DNA of 64,000 bases from a virus, in the IMG/VR virus record IMGVR_UViG_3300022701_000122, positions 64,001 through 128,000 of that record. One strand, written 5' to 3'. The notes under the pieces were generated by a model. That model was given only the letters and a program-made list of their open reading frames with translations, searched no databases and was not told the DNA's origin. Positions 1 through 54,813 of the stretch are shown piece after piece. The position numbers and the translations under genes are program-made. Numbering within the stretch: position 1 is the stretch's first letter; the number at the start of each line of letters is the position of its first letter.

Positions 1-231
1 GCAAATGAATGTGCACAATATGTCGTCAAACAACCAAAAACATCATCAGTTTCACGCGATGTTTTCACTCGCGCACACGACCATTTCATCTAAATAGATT
101 ATCTACTTTTAATCTAGCCACTAGCGATCATATCTAAATAGAATCACATCAGAATCTTAATCGTCGGGGCTATTCCGCTTAACAGAAGATTCTAATAAGA
201 AAAAATTATGAATATATGGAGAGAGCGGATT

Positions 232-281
232 TGTTTACTAAGTGATCAAGGACGGAACGGACTAAGATCACTTAGTAAACA
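232..281. repeat. Perfect 16-bp inverted repeat, 18-nt spacer
   Basis: TGTTTACTAAGTGATC (232-247) is the exact reverse complement of GATCACTTAGTAAACA (266-281). Confidence 0.95.
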
Positions 282-420
282 CTATATAAAAAGATTCTTG
301 ATTAAGCCGTAGAAGATTCACACGACCGGTACTGATTCCATATGTTAAGTTATTATTTTACATATTAATATACGAAGTATATTCTATATAATTATTATAA
401 CATATAATAGGTCTTGAAGC

Positions 421-458
421 GTTTTAGAAACTGCGGTCTGTTTTGCAGTTTCTAAAAC
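421..458. repeat. Perfect 14-bp inverted repeat, 10-nt spacer
   Basis: GTTTTAGAAACTGC (421-434) / GCAGTTTCTAAAAC (445-458). Confidence 0.95.
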
Positions 459-1211
459 CGTTCGAGGGCCGGTTCTCGACCGATAGGGAGTCATCAATAA
501 TCAAATTGATCTAAGAAGATTATATGTTCTATAAATTGAGCCATGAATGATTAAAACTGGTGATTATTTATTTATGATTATCTAAATTGATACACATTGA
601 TGCAACATTAACTTATTAGATTAATTATTAAAATAAAATCAAGTTGATTCATATTGATAGTGAATTGATACAACATCTACATCCAACTCTTAATTTCTTA
701 ATAACTTTCTATTAAGATCAATTTATCTCTTAAATAAGGTTAAATAACAAATTTTATAGTTCTTTAAGATTCTAATCATTTCTCCCTACCACTTCTCTAT
801 TTATAAAAATCCGAAACACAATGATTCATTATTTCTGTTTTTTGGTAGGTTTTTAACTTTGCAGTTAACCTCTACTTACCCTAATTTGACTAATTTATTT
901 ATCAATTCAAATGTTTAATATATCAAATATATAAATTTAATATATATCTATTGATAAATCATTTATTCAACTTTAAATTTAATTATTCATATTTTATTAA
1001 TCATTTAAATTTCTTTTATTAATAAGATATAAATTAATTAATTTAGATTTCTTTATCTTTATTTATTTTTCATTTATCAATTATTTTTTGGAATTTTGAA
1101 TCATTCATATATAATTCATGAATATATCAATATATGTCCGTTTCATTACGCCTGGGCTTCATGAAACGAGTAATAATATTTGACCTCAAATAGTTTTTCC
1201 ATTTGAATCTT

Positions 1212-1293
1212 AAAAGAATCTAATTAGATAAATATAGATTCTTTTTTCTTAGTATCTAAGAAAGAATTAATATTAGATTTTTAAAATCTAATA
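1212..1293. repeat. Two AGATT/AATCT-based palindromes
   Basis: AAAAGAATCTA (1212-1222)/TAGATTCTTTT (1235-1245); TATTAGATTTT-T-AAAATCTAATA (1271-1293). Confidence 0.85.
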
Positions 1294-1649
1294 TGAAAGA
1301 TTCTAAAATGTTTTAAATTAATCTATATAGATTCATTCTATAATCTAAGTAGATTAATAATGAACTGTATATGTTGTTAACATGGAATTAGTAGATTGTA
1401 CATGTGACATAATCATATTCTAAGAATATGTCCGAGCAATTTTTGGGTCAAGTCGGTACTTTTAAGAAGATATTTTGAAAATTGGAATAGCTGCTGCTAT
1501 GTGGACAAACGGTAGTCATAATGACCTATGTATTGTTTATGGGTTGGAGGAGGACAAAATTTAAACATGTTAACTGGTTTAGAAATAAAATCTAAAAAGT
1601 TTAATAATTTATTAAATTTTTTAAAGTGTGGTACTGAAAAACTTATAGC

Positions 1650-8805: not shown

Positions 8806-11800
8806 ACCAGTTTTTATTAATGCGCGAGATTTGGATGATGCTTGGCATCAATTATTATATCAATTATATAAAGAAGGGAGGAGATATTCAATTACATCTG
8901 GTTCACATGCTGGATCAGAGAGAGTTACTTTTGATTTTGCATCTGGTTTTATTAGGTATCCACAAAGTAGACCATTATCACCAAGAATGCCTGAAGGGGT
9001 ATCTTTACCGCCACCAACTACTGATGATGAAATAGATCAATATTTTGCTAATTATATAATGGATTCTAATCTTGAACCAAATGAAGAATATAGATATGCA
9101 ACATGGATAGTTGGAGATAATACAAATTATATTTATGGGGATGAGAATTTATGCAGCTATAATCAAACTGAATGGGTTATAAATCATTTTAAAACACATG
9201 GTATCGGAAATGAACATTGCTATATTACAATAGGTAATCCTGATTCAAATCGTGCATATGATAGACCATATCTTAAATGTAAAACATGTGGAAAGTTGCA
9301 TACGAAAAAAGCATCCAATAACGTATGTACAAATAATAAATGTAAAGCATATGGTACAGAATCTTTATTCATAAGTGAAGCGGATAGAGGAACTTCTCCA
9401 TGTTTACGTGGATTAGATTTTAGAATTATAGATGGGTATTTGACAACTAATGTAATATATCGATGTTTAGATGGAGATACACCAATAATCATAAAACATA
9501 ATTCAGTTTTAAAAAGAACTATTATAAAAGAAATATATCAATATATAAAATGTGGTGATTCAGTGGAAGTTATATCATTTGATAAAGATTATAATCAGAT
9601 ATGGTCTAATGTTACTGATTCACAAGTTTCATATAGATCAGATATCAGAGAAATTGAGATATATGGTGGTTATAAAATAAATGCATCAGAAAATCACAGA
9701 TTTCCAATATTAAAAAATGATAATATTGAATTAAAATATGTATATGATTTGGTTGATGGTGATGTGTTATTAGAGCCATATAGTATTGATTTTCAGTATA
9801 ATTCAGTAGATGTAATTGATTTATTTGAGATCTTTAAAGATAGTAATAAAGTTAAAGTTTGTAATTTAGAATTATCTGATTTTCATAGATTTAAAGAAGA
9901 TAACATTTCATATACTGATAGTAATAGAGATATAAAAATGATATCTATAAAACAAGCATATAATAGCCATTTATATAATGAATCTAATTTAACTATTCAT
10001 TGTTTTAAAATACAAACAAATAGAATGTTTAAAATTTCAAATGATTTTTCGTATTTTATGGGTTTATGGTGCGCAGATGGCTGGTATGGTAATAATTCAA
10101 GTAGTCTTAGAATAGCTATAAATTCCAAAAAGACTGATACTTTTAATAGGGTAATAAATTTTCTTAAGAATGAATTTGATTATACACCATCTATTGAACA
10201 TCGTGATGGATGTGAAGTTTTAAATATATCAATAGGTTTTCTTGTAAGAATGTATAAAAATTTAGGATTTAAACATGGAGCTAAATCGAAAAAAGTTCCA
10301 AATATTGTATTTTCACTTTCTAATGAACTTATAAATTCTTTTTTAGATGGGTGGATTTCTGGTGATACTTGTTGTTCAGCAAGTAATGATCTTATAATTG
10401 ATATGTCATATTTAAGTAAAATGGTGAATAAAAATGTTTCAATTTATAGAGAACCAGAACGACTTGTATATTTCAGAAAAGATAATAGATACATAAAAAG
10501 TAGTGGGTGTTTTAGTATATATAATATGAGTAAGAATCGTCCAAAATTAAGAAAAGGTGACTATATACTAAGAACTATAAAAAGTGTTAGTAATATACTT
10601 AATTTCGGAAATGTTTATGATATATCTGTTGATTCTGATTCTCATTTATTTTGTTGTGGATATATACCAATTATGACCCATAATTCTTGGGATGTATATT
10701 GTTTGAGTGATGATTCTGAAATATTAACAGATAATGGATGGCGCAATATAGATACTATATCTAAAGATGATAAAGCGGCTACATTAAATATAGATAAATG
10801 GGAAATGGAATTTTGTAATATTGATGAAATAATTAAATCTAATTATAGTGGTGATATGTATGAAATAGAAACTGCAAATATATCTCAATTAATAACTCCA
10901 AACCATAGAATGTTACATAAATATGTTACACATTCTGGAAATAAACGAATTATTAAAGATTATCAATATACTAAGGCAGATGAATTAATACCAAAAGATG
11001 GATCACTTATACCAGTTTCAGCACCATATAAAGAAGGAACATGGGAATTGGGTTATGTAAAGGCATCTCTAATTGGTTGGATTTTAACTGATTCACATTA
11101 TTTAGAAAAATGTGATGGTGTGTATATTTATCAAAGTGCTAAGAAGTACCATGTTGATATAAGAGAATTATTAACTGAATCTGGTATGAACTTTACTGAA
11201 AAATTTGAATCAAAGACAATGTATAAAATTGCAGATAAAGAGTATCCAGATGGTTTACTTGTTGAAATGTATAACTTTTATATTTCTGCTAAATCTACTA
11301 AATGGATAAAAGAAATAATTCCAAATAGAAGACCAACAGAAGAATTATTAAATCTTACTTATGATGATAGAATGTCAATATTTATTGCAATGATAAAAGG
11401 TGATGGTAGTTTTAAACATACAGCATATTGCTTTTATTCACAAGATAAAGAAAAAAGAGATTGGTTTCAACGATTAGCATTATCTTTGGGATTTCAAGCG
11501 AAAATAAATGATGAATCTGGATGTGTTAATGTATCTAATAGGAAAGAAGCATCATTTAATAGAACTTATTTTGTTGATGGTAAATTGCCTATTCGTAAAT
11601 ATGATGGTAGGATATGGTGTATACGAAATAGAAATACAAATTTTTTTATGAGAAGAAATGATAAAATATCTGTTACTGGAAATTCTGGATTTCCATGTAA
11701 CATGGGCGGTTTTACATTGTTGAATGAATATATTGCCGGGGAACTTGATATTAACTCTGGACCACTTTCATTTTCATGTAAATCTCTCCATGCATATTCA

Positions 11801-11896: not shown

Positions 11897-12250
11897 ATGA
11901 TCGTAGAATTTAATGAACAACAGATTAAACTTCTTCTTGAATTTTTAAGCAGAGTCGATATCAAAGGTTTTGAATCTCAAAATCATGCTATACTTGTTCA
12001 AACAATAAACAGACCAAAACAAAGTCAAGATATGACTAATGTTGATTCTGCTGCAATGTTGACTGAACTCAAGAAACGTAATTTTGATTTTTCTTCTGTC
12101 AATGGTATTCTTGACAGCGTTGGAAATGATAAATTGATTAATGCATTGAGAGATAGAGGAATCAGTGTAAATGATTTTAGTAAATCTGAATTACTTGAAG
12201 CTTTAAAGCGTAAAGATATTAATACAAATGTAATTGATCAATTGCAATAA
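11897..12250 (+). CDS. Small protein preceding the giant fibre gene
   Basis: GAGGGG RBS; 117-aa ORF. Confidence 0.75.
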   Translation: MIVEFNEQQIKLLLEFLSRVDIKGFESQNHAILVQTINRPKQSQDMTNVDSAAMLTELKKRNFDFSSVNGILDSVGNDKLINALRDRGISVNDFSKSELLEALKRKDINTNVIDQLQ

Positions 12251-15200: not shown

Positions 15201-18200
15201 GTTGGTCATGCATCTCAAACAGTTGGAGCAGATACATTTGATTTCGATGGAAATCAAGTTCAAATGTCTGTTAATGAAGAGACATCATTTTATATTACAA
15301 ACGGTGAAACTGTAACTACAGATATTGAAACATTTACATTAGATCCAACTCGAAATTTAATAGTTGCAATGTATGTTGCAGATTTTGGGCATTTATCAAA
15401 ATCTTCATTAACTGGAAATTGTTCATATTATTTTAAGAATGGTGATTATTCTTATCAGACAGATGTTGCAAGTGGAGGATGGGTACAATCTTCAAATATA
15501 TATGCATTTATAAGTGAGATAGAAGTTAAAACCAGTGATACTGGATCAGATGGTGATTATTATCTCGATACTGGAACTGGTGATATATATAAAAAAATAA
15601 CTGGTGTTTGGACTAAACAAGGAAATATACGGGGTCCAAGGGGATTAAAGGGAGATGATGGTGATGCTGGTTCGACAACATTTATTGGATTAACTGATGT
15701 TCCAAGTAGTTATTCGACTTATGCGAATAAGCGAGTAACTGTTAATGCAACTGCCGATGGCTTAGTATTTTCAGATAAATATGAACATCCATCAACCCAT
15801 CCAGCTACAATAATCACTCAAGATACAACTCATCGATTTATAACAGATGCAGAAAGAATAGCATGGAATGCTGCGGCATCAGGAAGCATACCACCAGCAA
15901 CAACTTCCACAATTGGAGGTATTATAGTTGGAGATAGATTAACGGTTGCTATAGATGGTACTTTAGATGCAGATGTTCAAACAGATAATAATTTTACAGA
16001 TGCATTAAAATCTAAATTAGATGGTATAGCTTCTGGTGCAAATAATTATACTCACCCTGTCACTCATCCACCATCAATCATTGCAGAAGATTCAAATAAT
16101 AGATTTGTAACGGATGCACAGATTGCACAATGGAATTCTGGATCTGCTACAAATTTTACTGATTTGTCTGATACTCCTGCTAATTATAGTGGTCATAGTC
16201 AAAAATTGGTTAGAGTAAATGCTGGAGAGACAGCATTAGAATTCGTTGATTCTACCGCTGGTGGTGGGAGTGGAGTTGATGAATTTATCGAATTAACCGA
16301 TACGCCTGGATCATTTACAGCAAATAAATATCTTAAAGTTAATGCTGGTGCTACGGCATTAGAGTTTGTAGATGAACCAAGTGGAGTTGATACATTTTTA
16401 GGTCTAACTGATTCTCCGGGTTCATTTTCTGGTCATGGTTTAAAAGTGGTTAGAGTGAATAGTGGTGCAAATGCTTTAGAATTTAATACACCAACATTTC
16501 TTGATTTGAATGATACACCAGGATCATTTATTGCCAACAGATACGTTAAAGTTAATTCTGCTGGTAATGCGTTAGAATTTACAGATTCTACCGCTGGTGG
16601 TTCTGATGTTGATGAGTTTTTAGAACTGATTGATGCACCATCAAGCTATTCTGGTCAATCTTTAAAGTTAATAAGAGTTAATGCTGGAGAAACTGGAGTT
16701 GAATTTACAGATCCATATACTCACCCTGCCACTCATCCACCGTCTATAATTGCTGAAGATACAAATGATAGATTTGTATCAGATTCACAAATATCAACAT
16801 GGGATGGTAAACCAGATAATTTTCTTGAACTTCCTGATACTCCAAGTTCATTTTCTGGTCAATCTGGTAAGAATATACGAGTAAAGTCAACAGAAGATGG
16901 TTTAGAATTCTATGATTCAACTGCTGGTAGTGGATCTGGAGCAGATACATTCATAGAATTAACAGATACACCTGTTTCATTCTCTGGAAATGAAGGATAT
17001 GTTGTTAGGGTGAATGAATCTGGTACAGCATTGGAATTCTTTGATTCAACCACTGATTTTACTGGATATGATGAATTCATAGAATTAGCAGATACACCGA
17101 GTTCTTTTATTGGACAAGGTAGTAAAATATTATATGTTGCTGATAATGAATTATCTGTCGATTTTAAAGATCCAACATTTATTGATTTAACAGATACTCC
17201 TGCTTCTTATCCTGAAGCTGCTGGAACATGGGCGAGAAGAATAGATATTACTATAAATAGTTTACTTGTTGATGAAGATTTAACAGATTTTCCAATCATG
17301 TTGGATCTTACAAATCATACAGAAATATTCAGTATAATATCTGATTCAGATAAATTGAAGATGTCTGCAAGAGTATATGATTCAACTTCTGATTCTGAGA
17401 CAGAATGTTATGTTGAAATTGATCATTATGATAGCACATCTAATACTGGAATATTATGGGTAAAAGTTCCAAATGTATCATCAACAGAAGATACTGTTTT
17501 GAGATTATATTATGATGATACACAATTGGATAATACTACATATGTTGGTGTTACCGAATCAGTTGCTGCTCAAAATGTATGGGATAGTAATTATATAGGT
17601 GTATGGCATTTAAATGCTGAAGATCCATCAGTAACGGATAGTGTTAAAGATTCAACTCAAAATAACAATGATGGCAATACACCAACTTCAAATAAACCAA
17701 CTCTTGTTGATACAGATCGACTTGGAAAAGGTTATGAATTTTATAGTCATTATGGTTCAGATGCACCAAGAATAGCATGTGATTGTGTTGGTATAACTAA
17801 TACAAAGTATACTGTTGAAATAACAGCTAAACCCGTTGTTACTGCTGTGAATGATGGTCTTTGGTGTATAAGTGATGGTAATAGTGAGTCTGCAAGAAAT
17901 GATCTTAGAATTTATGATGGGGATATGGATAATAGGGTAACTACAGTTACAATTATGGGATACCCTATGCCAGATGCTGGTCAATGGCATACATTTGGTA
18001 CAACATGGGATTTTGATGGTAATTCATTTGTATCTTATTTAGATGGCGCTATTGTTGATACATCTTCAAGTACACGATCAGCGGCAGGAGGACTTGATAC
18101 TTTTTCAATTGGTGCATGGAATTATTATGGTTCATGGAACACTGAAGCAACTGTTATTTCAGATGTGAGATTATCAAATGGTGTACGATCATATGCTTGG

Positions 18201-39398: not shown

Positions 39399-39440
39399 AA
39401 ATAGCCATGACATCTTTATTGGTGTTATGGCTATTTTTTT
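39399..39440 (+). terminator. Rho-independent terminator
   Basis: ATAGCCATGACATC/GGTGTTATGGCTAT stem (two G-U pairs) followed by T-run. Confidence 0.85.
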
Positions 39441-39463: not shown

Positions 39464-39478
39464 GGACAAATTATAAAT
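39464..39478 (+). promoter_or_regulatory. GGACAAA motif, putative phage promoter
   Basis: GGACAAATTATAAAT immediately after a terminator. Confidence 0.7.
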
Positions 39479-50298: not shown

Positions 50299-50595
50299 AT
50301 GGATAAAGATAAATTAGAAGAATTGTATAAAGATAACATTCAAACAAATGAATTAATGGAAGATGATGATGAGAAGTTATTTCTGTCTGAATTAACTGCA
50401 AGTACAACAAAAGTAACTAAAAGAACTAAACTAAAGCAACAAGCTGGCGTTCAAGCGTTAAGAATAGCCAAAGAGAAAAATGATCCATTATACAAAAAAT
50501 ATAAAAGATACAATACAATGAGACTTGAAATTAAAAAGAAACTAATGGACAAGTACTCAAGAAAGGGTATGCAATACGTAAGGAAAAATCTTTAA
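50299..50595 (+). CDS. Small protein with acidic N-terminus and basic C-terminus (possible head internal protein)
   Basis: GAGGT RBS; ELME and FLSE motifs precede the basic region. Confidence 0.6.
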   Translation: MDKDKLEELYKDNIQTNELMEDDDEKLFLSELTASTTKVTKRTKLKQQAGVQALRIAKEKNDPLYKKYKRYNTMRLEIKKKLMDKYSRKGMQYVRKNL

Positions 50596-50645
50596 TTAAC
50601 TATATATATTAAATAATAACATTGTTGGATTTATATGATAATGTT

Positions 50646-50783
50646 TGGTTAAGAGTGTGGAGAACCTTGGTCAGCCCGTGGTGGTCACGGGTGGGTTAAT
50701 TTCAGTTTTCTGGGTCTATTCTCTGGTGGTGGGGAATGGGTCCTTCTCCGACTGAATATCTTCATGCTCTTAACCATTTTTTT
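50646..50783 (+). ncRNA. Putative structured non-coding RNA (three-way junction, two GGUGGU-capped arms)
   Basis: 17-bp closing helix 50646-62/50760-76 with G-U pairs; hairpins 50674-92 and 50712-43; GC-rich island in AT-rich DNA; U-tract follows. Confidence 0.7.
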
Positions 50784-50825
50784 AACTAATTGTTTCTTTT
50801 TATATAAAGGATCTTTTTTATTTTT

Positions 50826-51092
50826 ATGAATTTTGAAGATATAAAATTAACATTAGAATTGATAAATGTTGTTATTGATGAATCTTGTTGCGAAGAAGTT
50901 AAAAGAGAATCAATAATATTATTATTAACTGATATATATGAATTTATGAAGATCGTTGTAGATAATGATCATCTTGAAGAATCACCAAATGATTATTATA
51001 ATCATTTGCGTTTATTGATTTTATTCAATAAAACATTAGAATCTGAAGAGAAATTAAAGTTATTAACTTTATTTAGAACTATTTCTATATGA
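50826..51092 (+). CDS. Small hypothetical protein
   Basis: AAGGA upstream; 88 aa. Confidence 0.65.
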   Translation: MNFEDIKLTLELINVVIDESCCEEVKRESIILLLTDIYEFMKIVVDNDHLEESPNDYYNHLRLLILFNKTLESEEKLKLLTLFRTISI

Positions 51093-52540
51093 AAAGGAGA
51101 TTTATGTTAAGATTTGTAAAAAAGAAAAAAGAAAAAAGAAAATGGAAAGTTTTTTTGGGAAATGAACAATTAGTAGAATTATCATTTAAACCAAATACAA
51201 TAACCAATAAATTCAAAGTTGTTGTTGAAACTATAGAAGATATGAGTAATGACATCGATGAATTTGGAGATTGGTATTCTGAATTATTGTCTAAATATAT
51301 TGAAGATGGATATAATGCAGAGATAATACTTGATAATACAATAAAATTGCTACAATATTCAATAGAATATGTAGATGGTAAAAAAGTTGATTTTAGTGAG
51401 TTTGTAAATATATCTAAATCAAATAAGACATCAATTATGTTCTATGAAAATGATTTAAGAGCAATAAGTATTGTATCTACATGTCTGAAATTATTATCTA
51501 TGTATGCATATGATGAACAAATACGAATAAACGAAAATGTTTATAAATCTATATATGAAAAATTAATAACTCCATGTGTGCAATTAGATACAACAACAAA
51601 AATATTTCAATTAGTAAGATCAAGAATTTATAGATCTGCAATAACTGACAGATACATGTGGGAATGGGTGAAAAATGCAATATTTGAAACACCAGAATCA
51701 TTTGTTATGACAATATTTAATTATGTTATGACAAATATATTATCTATTATAACAATTGGTAGAAATCCAATTCCCTACATTGTATCAATTATAGATGATA
51801 GTATTAAATGGTTAATGAAATCTCAGTATAAAGATAAGTTCTTATATGGAGAATCATATGGTGACTCTAATGATCTTTATGGATCATCTTTATCTAAAGA
51901 TGCGTTTTATATTTATTGTTGTAATGATACAATAATAAAGGGTGCAAAAATAGGTATGGATCTATTAGAACATGAGTACAATGTTACACATGATCAATTT
52001 GATGAAATAAGAGATAGACTTGATCAAATAAATGTTTTAACTCCAAATATCAAATTACTTATAATGCCCATTATATCAAAGATATTAGATATACCTTATA
52101 AATATCTTTTAACATGTCCACCAAAACATGCTTTATTATTGGGAGTCTTTATACATTATATATCAAAAGATCAATTTAAAAATAGATTTCCTATAATACT
52201 AAAGTATATGATATCTTGTCCAAATAGAACAGAACAAGCATTCATGTCCACAAGAAGTAGCTATAAAATAAGAAATCTTGAATTTATAATAAACGATGAA
52301 AATAGTAATATATTTGGATTTAAATCAGCAGTTGTTAAATTTGATATAATGAGTAGTATATGTGGAGTTTTGTCAGCTTCTAAAAAGAACTTGATAAATT
52401 TAATAACTGGAAAAAGATTAACTAAAATTACTTATCTTGATTTGGAACATGATATAACTAATTTTTTCACAGGATTATATTCTGGTTCTTTAAATCCATT
52501 ATTTGAAAAATTAAAAGACAAAGCAGATTTGTATTATTAA
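51089..52540 (+). CDS. Helical hypothetical protein, candidate promoter-specificity subunit of the phage RNAP
   Basis: ORF solid (likely start 51104, AAGGAG RBS); function only inferred from size, helicity and proximity to beta' genes. Confidence 0.35.
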   Translation: MKRRFMLRFVKKKKEKRKWKVFLGNEQLVELSFKPNTITNKFKVVVETIEDMSNDIDEFGDWYSELLSKYIEDGYNAEIILDNTIKLLQYSIEYVDGKKVDFSEFVNISKSNKTSIMFYENDLRAISIVSTCLKLLSMYAYDEQIRINENVYKSIYEKLITPCVQLDTTTKIFQLVRSRIYRSAITDRYMWEWVKNAIFETPESFVMTIFNYVMTNILSIITIGRNPIPYIVSIIDDSIKWLMKSQYKDKFLYGESYGDSNDLYGSSLSKDAFYIYCCNDTIIKGAKIGMDLLEHEYNVTHDQFDEIRDRLDQINVLTPNIKLLIMPIISKILDIPYKYLLTCPPKHALLLGVFIHYISKDQFKNRFPIILKYMISCPNRTEQAFMSTRSSYKIRNLEFIINDENSNIFGFKSAVVKFDIMSSICGVLSASKKNLINLITGKRLTKITYLDLEHDITNFFTGLYSGSLNPLFEKLKDKADLYY

Positions 52541-52606
52541 GTTTCTACTGTTTTTCAAACAGATTCATTAATTTTATATATATGGTAAAAATAAGGGATT
52601 TGAAAA

Positions 52607-53617
52607 ATGTCAATTATAAAAGACAATGATATTAAAATAGTTAATTTGATACTAACAAGAAAATGTAATCTGAGTTGTAACTATTGTAGATTATCTGGAA
52701 ATTTAAGTTATGAGAATTCACCATATCCAGATAAAGAATATTTTTATGAAAATGAATTAGATTATAATGAATGGAAAGATATTATAAGATATTTTAATAC
52801 CAGAAATGAAAATACATTTTTCATATTAGTTGGCGGTGAACCTTTATTCTATAAAAATTTATATAAAATAGTTAATTATCTTAATTATATCAATGCACCA
52901 TATACAATAATATCAAATTGTTCAGAACAAGTTATCCCATTAATAGATGATTTACTTAATAAATGTGGAAAGTTGAAAGGGTTCACTGCAAGTGTAGATC
53001 CCATAATAGATAGTTCAGATAAAAGTATTATACATAAAACAAACAATGGGTTTAAAGTATTAAAATGGTTGAAAGATAAAGATTTAGTTGATGATATTGT
53101 TGCCGAAGTTACAGTAGATAATGATAATATTAAATATCTGATAGAAACTGTTAAGATATTAGATAATAATGGTATAACTACAGATATAACAACATTAGAT
53201 ATATGCAAATCTAAAAATTATGATTTTTCAAATATACGTGATTATTCTAGAGCAGTTCAAAAATCACCAGAAACATTTGAAATATTTAAAAGTTTGATAA
53301 ATTCTAATTTTAAAATACATATGAAAGATCAATTATTGCCAGTTATATATTCCAAGTTACCATGTACCATGAGATGTAATATTAAAATAGGTAATATAAA
53401 CAATATAACAATTGATTCAGATGGTGCTGTTAGATTGTGTTATCGGATAAGGGGCGTTGATTCTGTTAAAAATAGTTATAAAGATATAATTAGAGTTAAT
53501 CTTAATGGTAGTGTTGAAGCTGGATTAATTTCTGATTATAAGAAGTTATGTAGAGGGTGTATTTGGACATGTATGATGATGTCTAATTTACCAAGTGAAA
53601 ATATAATTAATCATTAA
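52607..53617 (+). CDS. Radical SAM protein with C-terminal Cys cluster (SPASM/twitch-like)
   Basis: CNLSCNYC, VGGEPL, ISN, C-terminal C..CY...CRGCIWTC. Confidence 0.9.
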   Translation: MSIIKDNDIKIVNLILTRKCNLSCNYCRLSGNLSYENSPYPDKEYFYENELDYNEWKDIIRYFNTRNENTFFILVGGEPLFYKNLYKIVNYLNYINAPYTIISNCSEQVIPLIDDLLNKCGKLKGFTASVDPIIDSSDKSIIHKTNNGFKVLKWLKDKDLVDDIVAEVTVDNDNIKYLIETVKILDNNGITTDITTLDICKSKNYDFSNIRDYSRAVQKSPETFEIFKSLINSNFKIHMKDQLLPVIYSKLPCTMRCNIKIGNINNITIDSDGAVRLCYRIRGVDSVKNSYKDIIRVNLNGSVEAGLISDYKKLCRGCIWTCMMMSNLPSENIINH

Positions 53618-53628
53618 AGGAATTTATT

Positions 53629-54813
53629 ATGACTCGTAAACCAAACTTATTTATATCGAAAAGAAATTATGATGATATTCCAAAATTGGCAAGTAAAACT
53701 CAATGGTTAGATAAAGGAGCAACCATAAAGTGTTCTAAAAAGTATCAGGGAGATATGATTAACTTTTTAGCTGGTTTTGGATTGGAAGTTAAAAGATATG
53801 ATAACGAAACCAATATTTTCGAAGTTTTAAAGAAGAATAGTGAACAACCAAGATATAAACAATATCTTAAAGATAAAAAGCAAAAAGAGCTTGATATCCA
53901 ATTTGAAAAACTTAAAAAATTTAATGTCGCAACACCAACCAGAAAATTAATTATTGGAAGAAAGTATAAATCATTATTAACCCCAAGTTTAATATATGAA
54001 GTTATTGGAGTTTCCGACGATTTTAAATTTTATCATTGTAAACTCAAAAAATCATATGGGTATCATTACTATAATAATCAAAATTATGAGAAATGGGTAA
54101 TATGGTCGTATATAAACCCAATACCTCTTGATTCAGATAATGTTTCGGAAGAAGATTCATGTAAAGTAATAACTTCTAGTTTATTTAACATGTATTCTTT
54201 TTCAAATCGATCAATTAGTGAGTTGTATAAAAGATGTATAGAACACAATATCGATTTTTCTAATGTTAATACTGATGGATTAGATAATGAATATAAATTA
54301 AATGTTATAAGATCTCTTGTATATGGATTTTCTATAGGAAGTATGGTTTTCATTAAAGAAAGATCTGGTGGTGGTGAAGTTAAAAAATATATTTGTATAT
54401 ATGGTGGAGAGAGATTGAAAACTATATTTGATTTTATAGAAGGAAGATTCAAATTATATTTTACAGGCCAACTTCCAGAAGAAGGGAAGTACATACATCA
54501 ATTAAATGATGATTTTAGAAAAAGATTCTTTGATTCAGCTTATATAAATATATGTACTATAGCATTAAACGAATATGATGGTGAACTGGAAAAACTTTTA
54601 AAGATAGTTAAGTCAGTTATCACATTCAATTATGGATTACTTGGATCGTCCAATCAAAATATTCAAAATCTGCGAACGTTTGAACTAAAATTACATGATG
54701 TTGTTAATCATGTAAGAGGAAGGTTTGATGATGTAAGAAGTCCTCTAATTAGAGAATTGGTCAGACACAGATCTTCATTTTATATAAACCAAGATGAAGA
54801 AGAAACTGCGTAA
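53629..54813 (+). CDS. DUF262 (ParB/Srx-like) domain protein, degenerate motif
   Basis: SLVYGFSIGSMVF...IYGGERLKTIFDFIEG aligns with the DUF262 IDGQQRLTTI..F motif. Confidence 0.6.
   Translation: MTRKPNLFISKRNYDDIPKLASKTQWLDKGATIKCSKKYQGDMINFLAGFGLEVKRYDNETNIFEVLKKNSEQPRYKQYLKDKKQKELDIQFEKLKKFNVATPTRKLIIGRKYKSLLTPSLIYEVIGVSDDFKFYHCKLKKSYGYHYYNNQNYEKWVIWSYINPIPLDSDNVSEEDSCKVITSSLFNMYSFSNRSISELYKRCIEHNIDFSNVNTDGLDNEYKLNVIRSLVYGFSIGSMVFIKERSGGGEVKKYICIYGGERLKTIFDFIEGRFKLYFTGQLPEEGKYIHQLNDDFRKRFFDSAYINICTIALNEYDGELEKLLKIVKSVITFNYGLLGSSNQNIQNLRTFELKLHDVVNHVRGRFDDVRSPLIRELVRHRSSFYINQDEEETA

Follow-up and report, generated by a model that had tools for sequence, protein, structure and literature searches.

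The phage record IMGVR_UViG_3300022701_000122 is a 182.7-kb IMG/VR contig of 28% GC, with an estimated completeness of 58%. The window analysed here, a stretch of 64,000 nt, comprises bases 64001-128000 of this record; positions without a prefix refer to the window, and those prefixed G000 to the phage genome. The phage is jumbo and myovirus-like, with a PAAR spike, and all large genes within the window are oriented on the + strand. The locus of interest is a 230-nt intergenic gap extending from 50595 to 50826. It is preceded by genes encoding a 1092-aa hub-like protein, the PAAR spike protein, and a 98-aa virion protein, and is followed by an 88-aa ORF and genes encoding a 483-aa protein, a radical-SAM protein (336 aa), and a 394-aa protein. 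Features of the gap and its surroundings, together with two further structured RNAs of the window, are collected in Table 1.

Only distant relatives of the 98-aa virion protein were found, with at most 51% identity among protein representatives and at most 48% among IMG/VR loci. The 483-aa protein (51089-52540), although conserved in the clade, has no match in Pfam or PHROG, and its 69 homologues, of 31-54% identity, are encoded in huge-phage contigs of 200-335 kb. Seventeen columns are invariant in an alignment of 34 of these 69 homologues. In the four contigs that were fetched, the gene is located just downstream of baseplate, spike, or lysis genes and upstream of a radical-SAM gene.

Table 1. 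Coordinates (window numbering) of features at the RNA-1 locus and of two other structured RNAs
Feature	Position	Strand	Basis
Phage motif B (CTATATATATTAAATAATAAC), putative promoter, directly 3' of the stop codon of the 98-aa virion gene	50600..50620	+	recurrence, position
5' leader hairpin, 10 bp (3 G-U), beginning inside the 3' end of motif B	50618..50645	+	fold of 50615-50790
Clamp, 5' strand of the 17-bp closing helix; starts with UGGU	50646..50662	+	fold
Left arm: 5-bp helix, 6-nt UGGUCA bulge (50668-73), 7-bp helix, GUGGU pentaloop (50681-85)	50663..50697	+	fold
Right arm: 7-bp helix, pyrimidine-rich internal loop (UUCU/UCUCC), 14-bp G-U-rich stem capped by UGGUGGUG	50701..50756	+	fold
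Clamp, 3' strand; ends with ACCA (50773-76)	50760..50776	+	sequence, fold
U7 tract	50777..50783	+	with the clamp, intrinsic terminator form in the phage's usual style
Downstream operon (88 aa, 483 aa, radical-SAM 336 aa, 394 aa)	50826..54813	+	ORFs, domains, motif map
Stem-clamped RNA, 136 nt	211-346		z -5.9
Stem-clamped RNA, 130 nt	399-528		z -5.7

Folding of the + strand with RNAfold yielded, from position 50646 onward, a 132-nt three-way junction, hereafter RNA-1. Its minimum free energy (MFE) of -59.9 kcal/mol, i.e., -0.45 kcal/mol per nt, compares with -38.0 +/- 3.6 kcal/mol for 200 dinucleotide shuffles, none of which was as good (0/200; z -6.0), and with the 5' leader included the fold reaches -66 kcal/mol (z -6.3). 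The closing helix, or clamp, joins 50646-50662 with 50760-50776 in 17 bp, three of them G-U, and encloses about 97-98 nt folded as two arms; the junction strands comprise 0, 3, and 3 nt. The MFE, centroid, and ensemble predictions give a single dominant fold with no competing helix. About a dozen G-U pairs of this fold become A-C mismatches on the opposite strand, and because such pairs are so many, the minus strand is far less stable (MFE of just -35.6 kcal/mol). The strand asymmetry and the G-U pairs exclude a DNA-level cruciform as well as an RNA encoded by the minus strand. The GC content of the 132 nt is 0.49 vs. 0.28 in the genome, which makes RNA-1 one of about 38 local GC peaks among those listed for this genome. 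In AT-rich genomes, GC islands of this kind mark structured-RNA genes.

An earlier note, made from the sequence alone, had described a structured, GC-rich island on the + strand, and the energies given above bear this out. The 17-bp closing helix and both arms were reproduced by RNAfold at the positions given in the note, the UGGUCA bulge and the GUGGU loop of the left arm are both unpaired in the MFE structure, and the 3' strand ends with ...UUAACCA (ACCA at 50773-76) immediately before the U7 tract. A UGGU-type word is exposed at the apex of the right arm as well, the sequence of which is UGGUGGUGGGG; the MFE structure draws there a GUGG tetraloop (50726-29), on a stem in which about half of the pairs are G-U. 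All structural statements of the note were thus reproduced.

The locus could also be read as a gene of a 36-aa hydrophobic protein, similar to type I toxins and carried by a structured mRNA, as the only open frame of RNA-1 (TTG at 50645, stop at 50755) covers the greater part of the RNA, and 20 consecutive residues of its product would be hydrophobic. However, the GC3 of this frame is 0.67, compared to 0.16 +/- 0.06 (maximum 0.49) for genes of this phage, and on these grounds coding was rejected. The frame has neither an ATG nor a Shine-Dalgarno sequence, its start codon is buried in the clamp, and a G+U-rich sequence gives Val, Gly, Phe, and Trp codons in whatever frame it is read. We regard a toxin-like gene at this site as hardly credible.

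The motif B upstream of RNA-1 has the form TATATATATTAAAT-A-N-TAAC and is located 43 nt upstream of the RNA. The genome contains its 12-mer core 15 times without mismatch, with 11 occurrences on the + strand. Where the core lies between genes, 16-163 nt separate it from the downstream feature, which may be a gene, tRNA-Leu, or a second structured RNA described below (RNA-2). The distance from the motif to the first structured nucleotide is 41 nt in the case of tRNA-Leu and 43 nt in the case of RNA-1. Copies of the motif, including that of RNA-2, are typically followed by a small 5' hairpin, which at RNA-1 is the one at 50618-45. The motif is also present after the homologous upstream gene in the related loci L009-L012, and in many of the 36 related loci examined it lies 5' of the gene of the 483-aa homologue. 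Its recurrence and position suggest that motif B is a promoter.

In the clade form TATATATATTAAAT-(A/T)-N-TAA(C/T), motif B appears to represent a second promoter class besides GGACAAA. Its sites are at 50603 and 61625 in the window, at 10046, 16589, 125625, 140469, 149585, 150257, 152485, 161201, 176357, and 182667 in G000, and near 3610-3890 in L009-L012. They precede tRNAs, ncRNAs, and non-structural genes, often just 20-160 nt from the ATG, and conservation of the motif extends to relatives (L009-L016) with 43-54% identity in the 483-aa protein.

Plain terminators of the phage, at 39402, 54812, and 58683, consist of 14-19-bp stems followed by T7-8, and each of them is followed in turn by GGACAAA, the other recurrent promoter motif. 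The clamp of RNA-1 and its U7 tract have the same dimensions. No other terminator was found in the stretch that extends from the GGACAAA at 39464 to the plain terminator at 54812; RNA-1 is thus the sole terminator-like feature of this region and therefore should also end the late tail/baseplate operon. With regard to form, a stem directly followed by a U-run is located at the end of an operon, as in intrinsic terminators, but the usual loop of 3-8 nt is missing. The U7 tract ends 42 nt before the first gene of the downstream operon (ATG at 50826). As no promoter motif of that operon's own was found on the motif map between U7 and this ATG, transcription would have to reach it through the terminator of RNA-1. 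Judged from sequence, RNA-1 is a candidate stand-alone small-RNA gene, with a promoter motif and a terminator form on either side of a non-coding frame. The earlier note had recognised the structured RNA at this locus, which stands, but had overlooked the putative promoter, the predicted terminator role of the clamp, and the wider set of similar RNAs in this genome.

The explanation that we prefer, while rating it about equally likely to be right or wrong, is that RNA-1 is a small-RNA gene, with a clamp that serves in addition as operon terminator and gate. According to this proposal, motif B (50600-20) would start a transcript of ~165 nt, composed of the 5' hairpin and the 132-nt three-way junction, with the 17-bp closing helix and U7 presumably acting as its intrinsic terminator. 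The same helix and U-run would end the late tail/baseplate operon arriving from upstream and, lying between motif B and the next operon, could serve as a terminator and a gate in one. RNA-1 released in this way would have both ends locked in a long duplex, and may be a stable RNA that acts in trans, contacting its partner via the exposed G/U-rich bulge and loops.

The stability of the fold with and without the leader, its difference between strands, the GC island, and the non-coding character of the only frame all argue for such a gene. So do the recurrence of motif B with matching spacing, its retention at the syntenic site of relatives, the size of the clamp and U7, which is that of plain phage terminators, and the occurrence in this genome of a sister RNA of the same layout that stands alone (RNA-2) and of further stem-clamped RNAs (window 211-346 and 399-528, and an island at G000 161.3-163.7 kb). 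Against it, no homologue was found in any collection searched, the closest relatives have no RNA-1 at the syntenic site, and a terminator with a 'loop' of about 98 nt is atypical. The promoterless downstream operon, moreover, fits a cis-regulatory leader at least equally well.

Such a leader or attenuator of the 50826-54813 operon, in which closure of the clamp, set by folding of the arms or by binders, would control read-through to the 88-aa, 483-aa, and radical-SAM genes, deserves consideration, although we regard it as unlikely. In relatives, motif B directly precedes the homologues of this operon, and in the phage studied here the terminator, 42 nt before the first gene, is separated from it by no other promoter motif. 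However, an antiterminator pairing is seen neither in the MFE nor in the centroid or ensemble predictions, a 17-bp clamp is too stable for switching by a small ligand, and no riboswitch or T-box model matches the RNA. RNA-2, alike in layout, is followed by a promoter of its own and hence is not a leader.

Another explanation is that RNA-1 acts only as a terminator or insulator, i.e., as a hairpin in the style of this phage with a partnerless GC-rich insert in its loop, which ends the late operon and shields mRNA 3' ends. In its favor, the stem of the clamp is as long as in plain terminators and the U-tail is the same, relatives have no more than a small hairpin at this site, and RNA-1 is an orphan. 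Yet a neutral insert of 98 nt would be unlikely to fold so well or to have nearly twice the GC content of the genome. Two further features speak for a designed RNA product, namely the putative promoter just 5' of RNA-1 and the presence in the genome of another unit with the same UGGU...ACCA ends. We consider a function in termination and nothing else rather doubtful.

Searches of known families returned no identity for RNA-1. None of the 4227 models of Rfam 15, which include those of tRNA, tmRNA, 6S, SRP, Y RNA/YrlA, T-box, C4, riboswitches, and small ribozymes, matched the window at the gathering score. At E<=10, the region 50500-50900 gave only three chance-level matches of at most 13.9 bits, none of which covers the fold. 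ARAGORN found no tRNA or tmRNA in the window. RNA-1 differs from a tRNA in its three-way junction and in having no T-loop (UUCRANY), and its 3' ACCA is present but paired; it differs from a T-box in its single dominant fold and in the lack of a match to RF00230 at E<=10. Thus, the statement of the earlier note that no signature of tRNA, SRP, 6S, or a riboswitch is recognisable was confirmed by the Infernal/Rfam scan that it had proposed and by ARAGORN. Several other identities were excluded: a hammerhead or another small ribozyme by the junction strands of 0, 3, and 3 nt and the absence of a match in Rfam, a MITE by the single copy of RNA-1, and a pRNA of the phi29 type by the nature of the phage (jumbo, myovirus-like, with a PAAR spike), by loops that are not mutually complementary, and likewise by the absence of a match in Rfam.

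A search for homologues, also proposed in the earlier note, was carried out as well, and RNA-1 is absent from all relatives and collections covered by it. The relatives numbered 45, compared either at the syntenic site or over their whole genomes. Neither RNA-1 nor RNA-2 had a blastn match among 50,697 GenBank phages. For RNA-1, scanning IMG/VR for exact words gave two chance matches, to a hairpin only, and two pattern scans of a metagenome collection were empty. The covariance model of RNA-1 (R1) detected no second copy of it in its own genome and had no match at 40 syntenic loci of the 483-aa gene (four fetched contigs and 36 IMG/VR loci). Neither R1 nor the model R2 matched any of nine related phage records searched whole. 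At the syntenic site, relatives have a gap of 80-130 nt after motif B, with a short hairpin or nothing in it, and this is also the case in the closest of them (53-54% identity in the 483-aa protein). Scans for a clamp with a U-run and folding downstream of promoters in the two nearest relatives revealed nothing comparable to RNA-1. In IMG/VR, a scan for the architecture of the unit (motif B, gap, UGGU, gap, ACCAUU) gave 41 candidates, the clamps of which have at most 6 bp and the best of which reaches -0.28 kcal/mol per nt vs. -0.45 for RNA-1; none of them is an analogue.

The absence of RNA-1 from the closest relatives indicates that it is dispensable for the clade, and it is a recent or fast-evolving acquisition of its lineage. 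Homologues with compensatory changes, which would define a conserved family, were not found in the collections searched, and because no homologue is at hand, the support for selection on RNA-1 is confined to its composition and stability. RNA-1 is an unannotated, strand-specific orphan structured RNA of no catalogued family.

Folding of the 190 nt downstream of every motif-B copy led to the identification of RNA-2, a 109-nt RNA at G000 10097-10205, outside the window (unit L050:10042-10216), with an MFE of -50.7 kcal/mol and a z of -7.9. The order of its elements is a motif-B promoter, a 5' hairpin, an 18-bp clamp (GUGGUGCG.../...CGCACCAU), and a U-run (UAAUUUUUU), and the interior of the clamp is a cloverleaf-like four-way junction. 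As for RNA-1, no Rfam family was found for it, and no homologue among GenBank phages (blastn) or in related records. RNA-2 is followed by a GGACAAA motif and then by the first tRNA cluster (tRNA-Lys/Phe); because of this separate promoter motif behind it, RNA-2 is a stand-alone gene and not a leader. Both RNAs start with (G)UGGU and end with ACCAU, and in a genome-wide scan for ACCA with a T-run closing a long-range helix they were the only two found. The loops of RNA-2 contain no UGGU.

Further RNAs of a similar build occur elsewhere in the genome. The 1.4-kb ORF-free stretch at window 94-1527 contains at least two more stem-clamped RNAs (Table 1), with no Rfam match at the gathering score. 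An ncRNA island at G000:C1:161340-163670 (L049:15340-17670), ORF-free over ~2.5 kb after tRNA-Leu, consists of back-to-back RNAs with terminal stems of 13-28 bp (e.g., 161422-511, 161513-611, 162191-253, and 162259-401); the GUGGUGGUC word of the RNA-1 left arm also caps a hairpin of this island, at G000 161808-161830. As members of an informal stem-clamped class we count RNAs that lie on the transcribed strand of ORF-free DNA and in which 13 bp or more of terminal duplex surround 60-150 nt of GC-richer sequence folded into several hairpins. With its 17-bp clamp (13-28 bp in the others), RNA-1 falls within this class, and it appears to be a stand-alone unit among the stem-clamped RNAs peculiar to this phage. 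The units of the island, which is the phage's own array in the tRNA operon, resemble RNA-1 in their terminal duplex of 13-28 bp, GC-richer multi-hairpin interior, and size. In contrast to RNA-1, they are packed back to back, have no promoter or U-run per unit, and lack the UGGU...ACCA ends, and they share with it no similarity of sequence or model.

The earlier note had drawn attention to UGGU motifs displayed by RNA-1 and complementary to tRNA 3' ends. The display itself is supported, with UGGU and UGGUGG 3- to 10-fold above the dinucleotide-shuffle expectation: UGGU occurs six times vs. 2.2 in shuffles (P 0.011; post hoc), three copies are mostly unpaired vs. 0.47 expected (P 0.009; post hoc), UGGUGG occurs three times vs. 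0.28 expected (P 0.003; post hoc), and the words are exposed in the bulge and both loops above the shuffle expectation (P ~0.01). UGGUGG is complementary to the common CCACCA-3' end of tRNAs. The tRNAs of the phage have an encoded CCA, with Pro, Tyr, and Met ending in ACCA and Met in CCACCA. When the right-arm apex was paired with 191 upstream windows, its strongest duplex was that with the 3' end of a tRNA-like piece (G000 12210-33; -28.9 kcal/mol, z ~-4).

One might therefore think of a sponge or shield of tRNA ends, in which the exposed UGGU and UGGUGG words pair multivalently with ACCA or CCACCA. The enrichment and exposure of the motif, the encoded CCA ends, the top duplex partner, and the UGGU...ACCA termini common to RNA-1 and RNA-2 would be in line with it. 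Nothing that we computed, however, supports an action on tRNA 3' ends: nested cofolding of RNA-1 with the 3' ends of phage tRNAs, with whole tRNAs, or with the free 3' half is no better than separate folding (zero net gain; kissing contacts lie outside this model). The loops, of just 4-6 nt, physically permit contacts of only 4-5 nt, RNA-2 has no UGGU in its loops, and similarity to a T-box or RNase P is lacking in Rfam at E<=10. We consider the tRNA-sponge idea improbable.

The same termini may suggest a mimic of the tRNA acceptor: after trimming of the U-tail and an RNase P-like cut of the 4-5-nt UGGU leader, a helix with a free 3'-ACCA would remain. RNA-1 and RNA-2 alone combine a long-range clamp of high stability with UGGU...ACCA and a U-run, and the phage tRNA-Tyr likewise ends with an encoded ACCA followed by a T-run. 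RNA-2 cut in this manner would begin with G-C, C-G, G-C, like an acceptor stem, and its four-way interior is cloverleaf-like. On the other hand, ACCA is fully base-paired in the predicted fold, no T-loop, D-loop, tRNA, or tmRNA was called, RNA-1 is a three-way junction and not a cloverleaf, the processing is wholly hypothetical, and the architecture scan of IMG/VR revealed no analogue. We judge this maturation very improbable, and equally so its corollary that the two RNAs would be decoys or substrates for enzymes reading tRNA 3' ends. Quite unlikely too is the broader proposition that RNA-1 and RNA-2 represent a new kind of phage RNA with its own promoters, matured to free 3'-ACCA helices and acting at tRNA 3' ends, either by sponging or shielding them or by serving as decoys for CCA-recognising or CCA-modifying host enzymes and defence toxins.

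The first tRNA region (L050:10280-10950; G000:C1:12150-12233) has peculiarities of its own. A repeated spacer, AAAATCATTACAG, is present before each tRNA or tRNA-like piece, and for several of these pieces ARAGORN makes no call. The piece at 10680-10760 consists of a T-arm and 3' acceptor with CCA, directly followed by an apparent 5' half, and that at 12170-12233 is a lone 3' half ending with CCCCUGCCACCA. These odd pieces may be split or permuted tRNA genes. In the related locus L012, an RtcB RNA ligase is encoded a few genes downstream of the syntenic site (L012:7608-8729), and it may be of relevance to the odd tRNA pieces of the phage studied here.

A messenger RNA can also be proposed as a partner of the loops. 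In non-coding DNA of the genome, the UGGUGGU 7-mer or its complement is restricted to RNA-1 (twice), one island hairpin, and the 5' UTR of the gene at G000 16664-17719 (twice), which encodes a 351-aa coiled-coil protein. This UTR (G000:C1:16601-16663, in L050), driven by motif B, contains two ACACCACCA repeats just 5' of AAGGAG; its ACCACCA copies, 21 and 33 nt before the ATG, are the sole non-coding sense copies in the genome. RNA-1 could thus be a base-pairing sRNA whose two UGGUGGU apices pair with the two repeats upstream of the Shine-Dalgarno sequence, the restricted distribution of the 7-mer and its complement and the motif B shared by both transcription units being in its favor. However, the duplex scores are only ~2-2.6 sd better than average and cofolding with the ACCACCA leader brings no net gain. 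Being simple repeats, (ACC)n and (UGG)n originate readily, and a CA-rich leader may be no more than an unstructured enhancer of translation. For the gene at G000 16664, no homologue is present in relatives. The chance that RNA-1 has this target seems slim to us. In P1 and P7, c4 RNA (RF01695) is cut by RNase P from its precursor via a CCA-bearing acceptor-like stem, and it acts via two loops, each on a complementary site close to a ribosome-binding site. Features of RNA-1 that recall this are its two like loops, its 3' ACCA, and the occurrence in the phage of one leader in which a complementary repeat is present twice. In size and junction RNA-1 differs from c4 RNA, and it does not match the RF01695 model even at E<=10.

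Two further systems resemble RNA-1 in part. With T-boxes, in which a UGGN bulge pairs with the NCCA of tRNA, it shares an unpaired UGGU bulge close to a terminator and the position of a leader. However, Stem I, the specifier, the T-box sequence, and an antiterminator fold are all lacking, as is a match in Rfam, and the genes downstream of RNA-1 are not aminoacyl-tRNA or amino-acid genes. With intrinsic terminators it shares a stable stem directly followed by U7, the stem being as long as those at 39402, 54812, and 58683; it differs from them in a two-arm 'loop' of 98 nt instead of 4-8 nt and in the promoter motif directly upstream, owing to which the hairpin would also form the body of a short transcript.

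Phage T4 encodes the discrete RNAs RNAC and RNAD, which come from its tRNA operon and are of still-unknown role (PMC3014915; PMC9697503). These RNAs (species 1 and 2 stable RNAs) are similar to RNA-1 in being phage-encoded, ~120-140 nt in length, and set in a T4-like or large phage. When folded here from AF158101, rnaC (z -4.6) had a T-arm of the tRNA type and lacked a long clamp, and rnaD (z -0.8) had hardly any structure and likewise no clamp; in these respects both are unlike RNA-1. The best matches of R1 over the T4 tRNA region, with filters off, were of at most 14 bits and outside rnaC and rnaD. RNA-1 further differs from the T4 RNAs in having its own promoter motif and terminator form and in its location inside a block of structural genes.

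Small stable RNAs of large phages, such as RNAC and RNAD of T4, have been known for fifty years. The phage studied here carries well over a dozen stem-clamped RNAs, and RNA-1 is the cleanest of the set: it is single-copy, is located between two operons with a predicted promoter and terminator of its own, and has just two arms. It is thus a tractable entry point to the role of such phage RNAs. If RNA-1 were merely an elaborate terminator, it would show a terminator hairpin growing into an RNA gene. If, on the other hand, the UGGU...ACCA termini were to reflect mimicry or binding of tRNA ends, they would represent a new route by which a phage acts on translation or on tRNA-directed defence.
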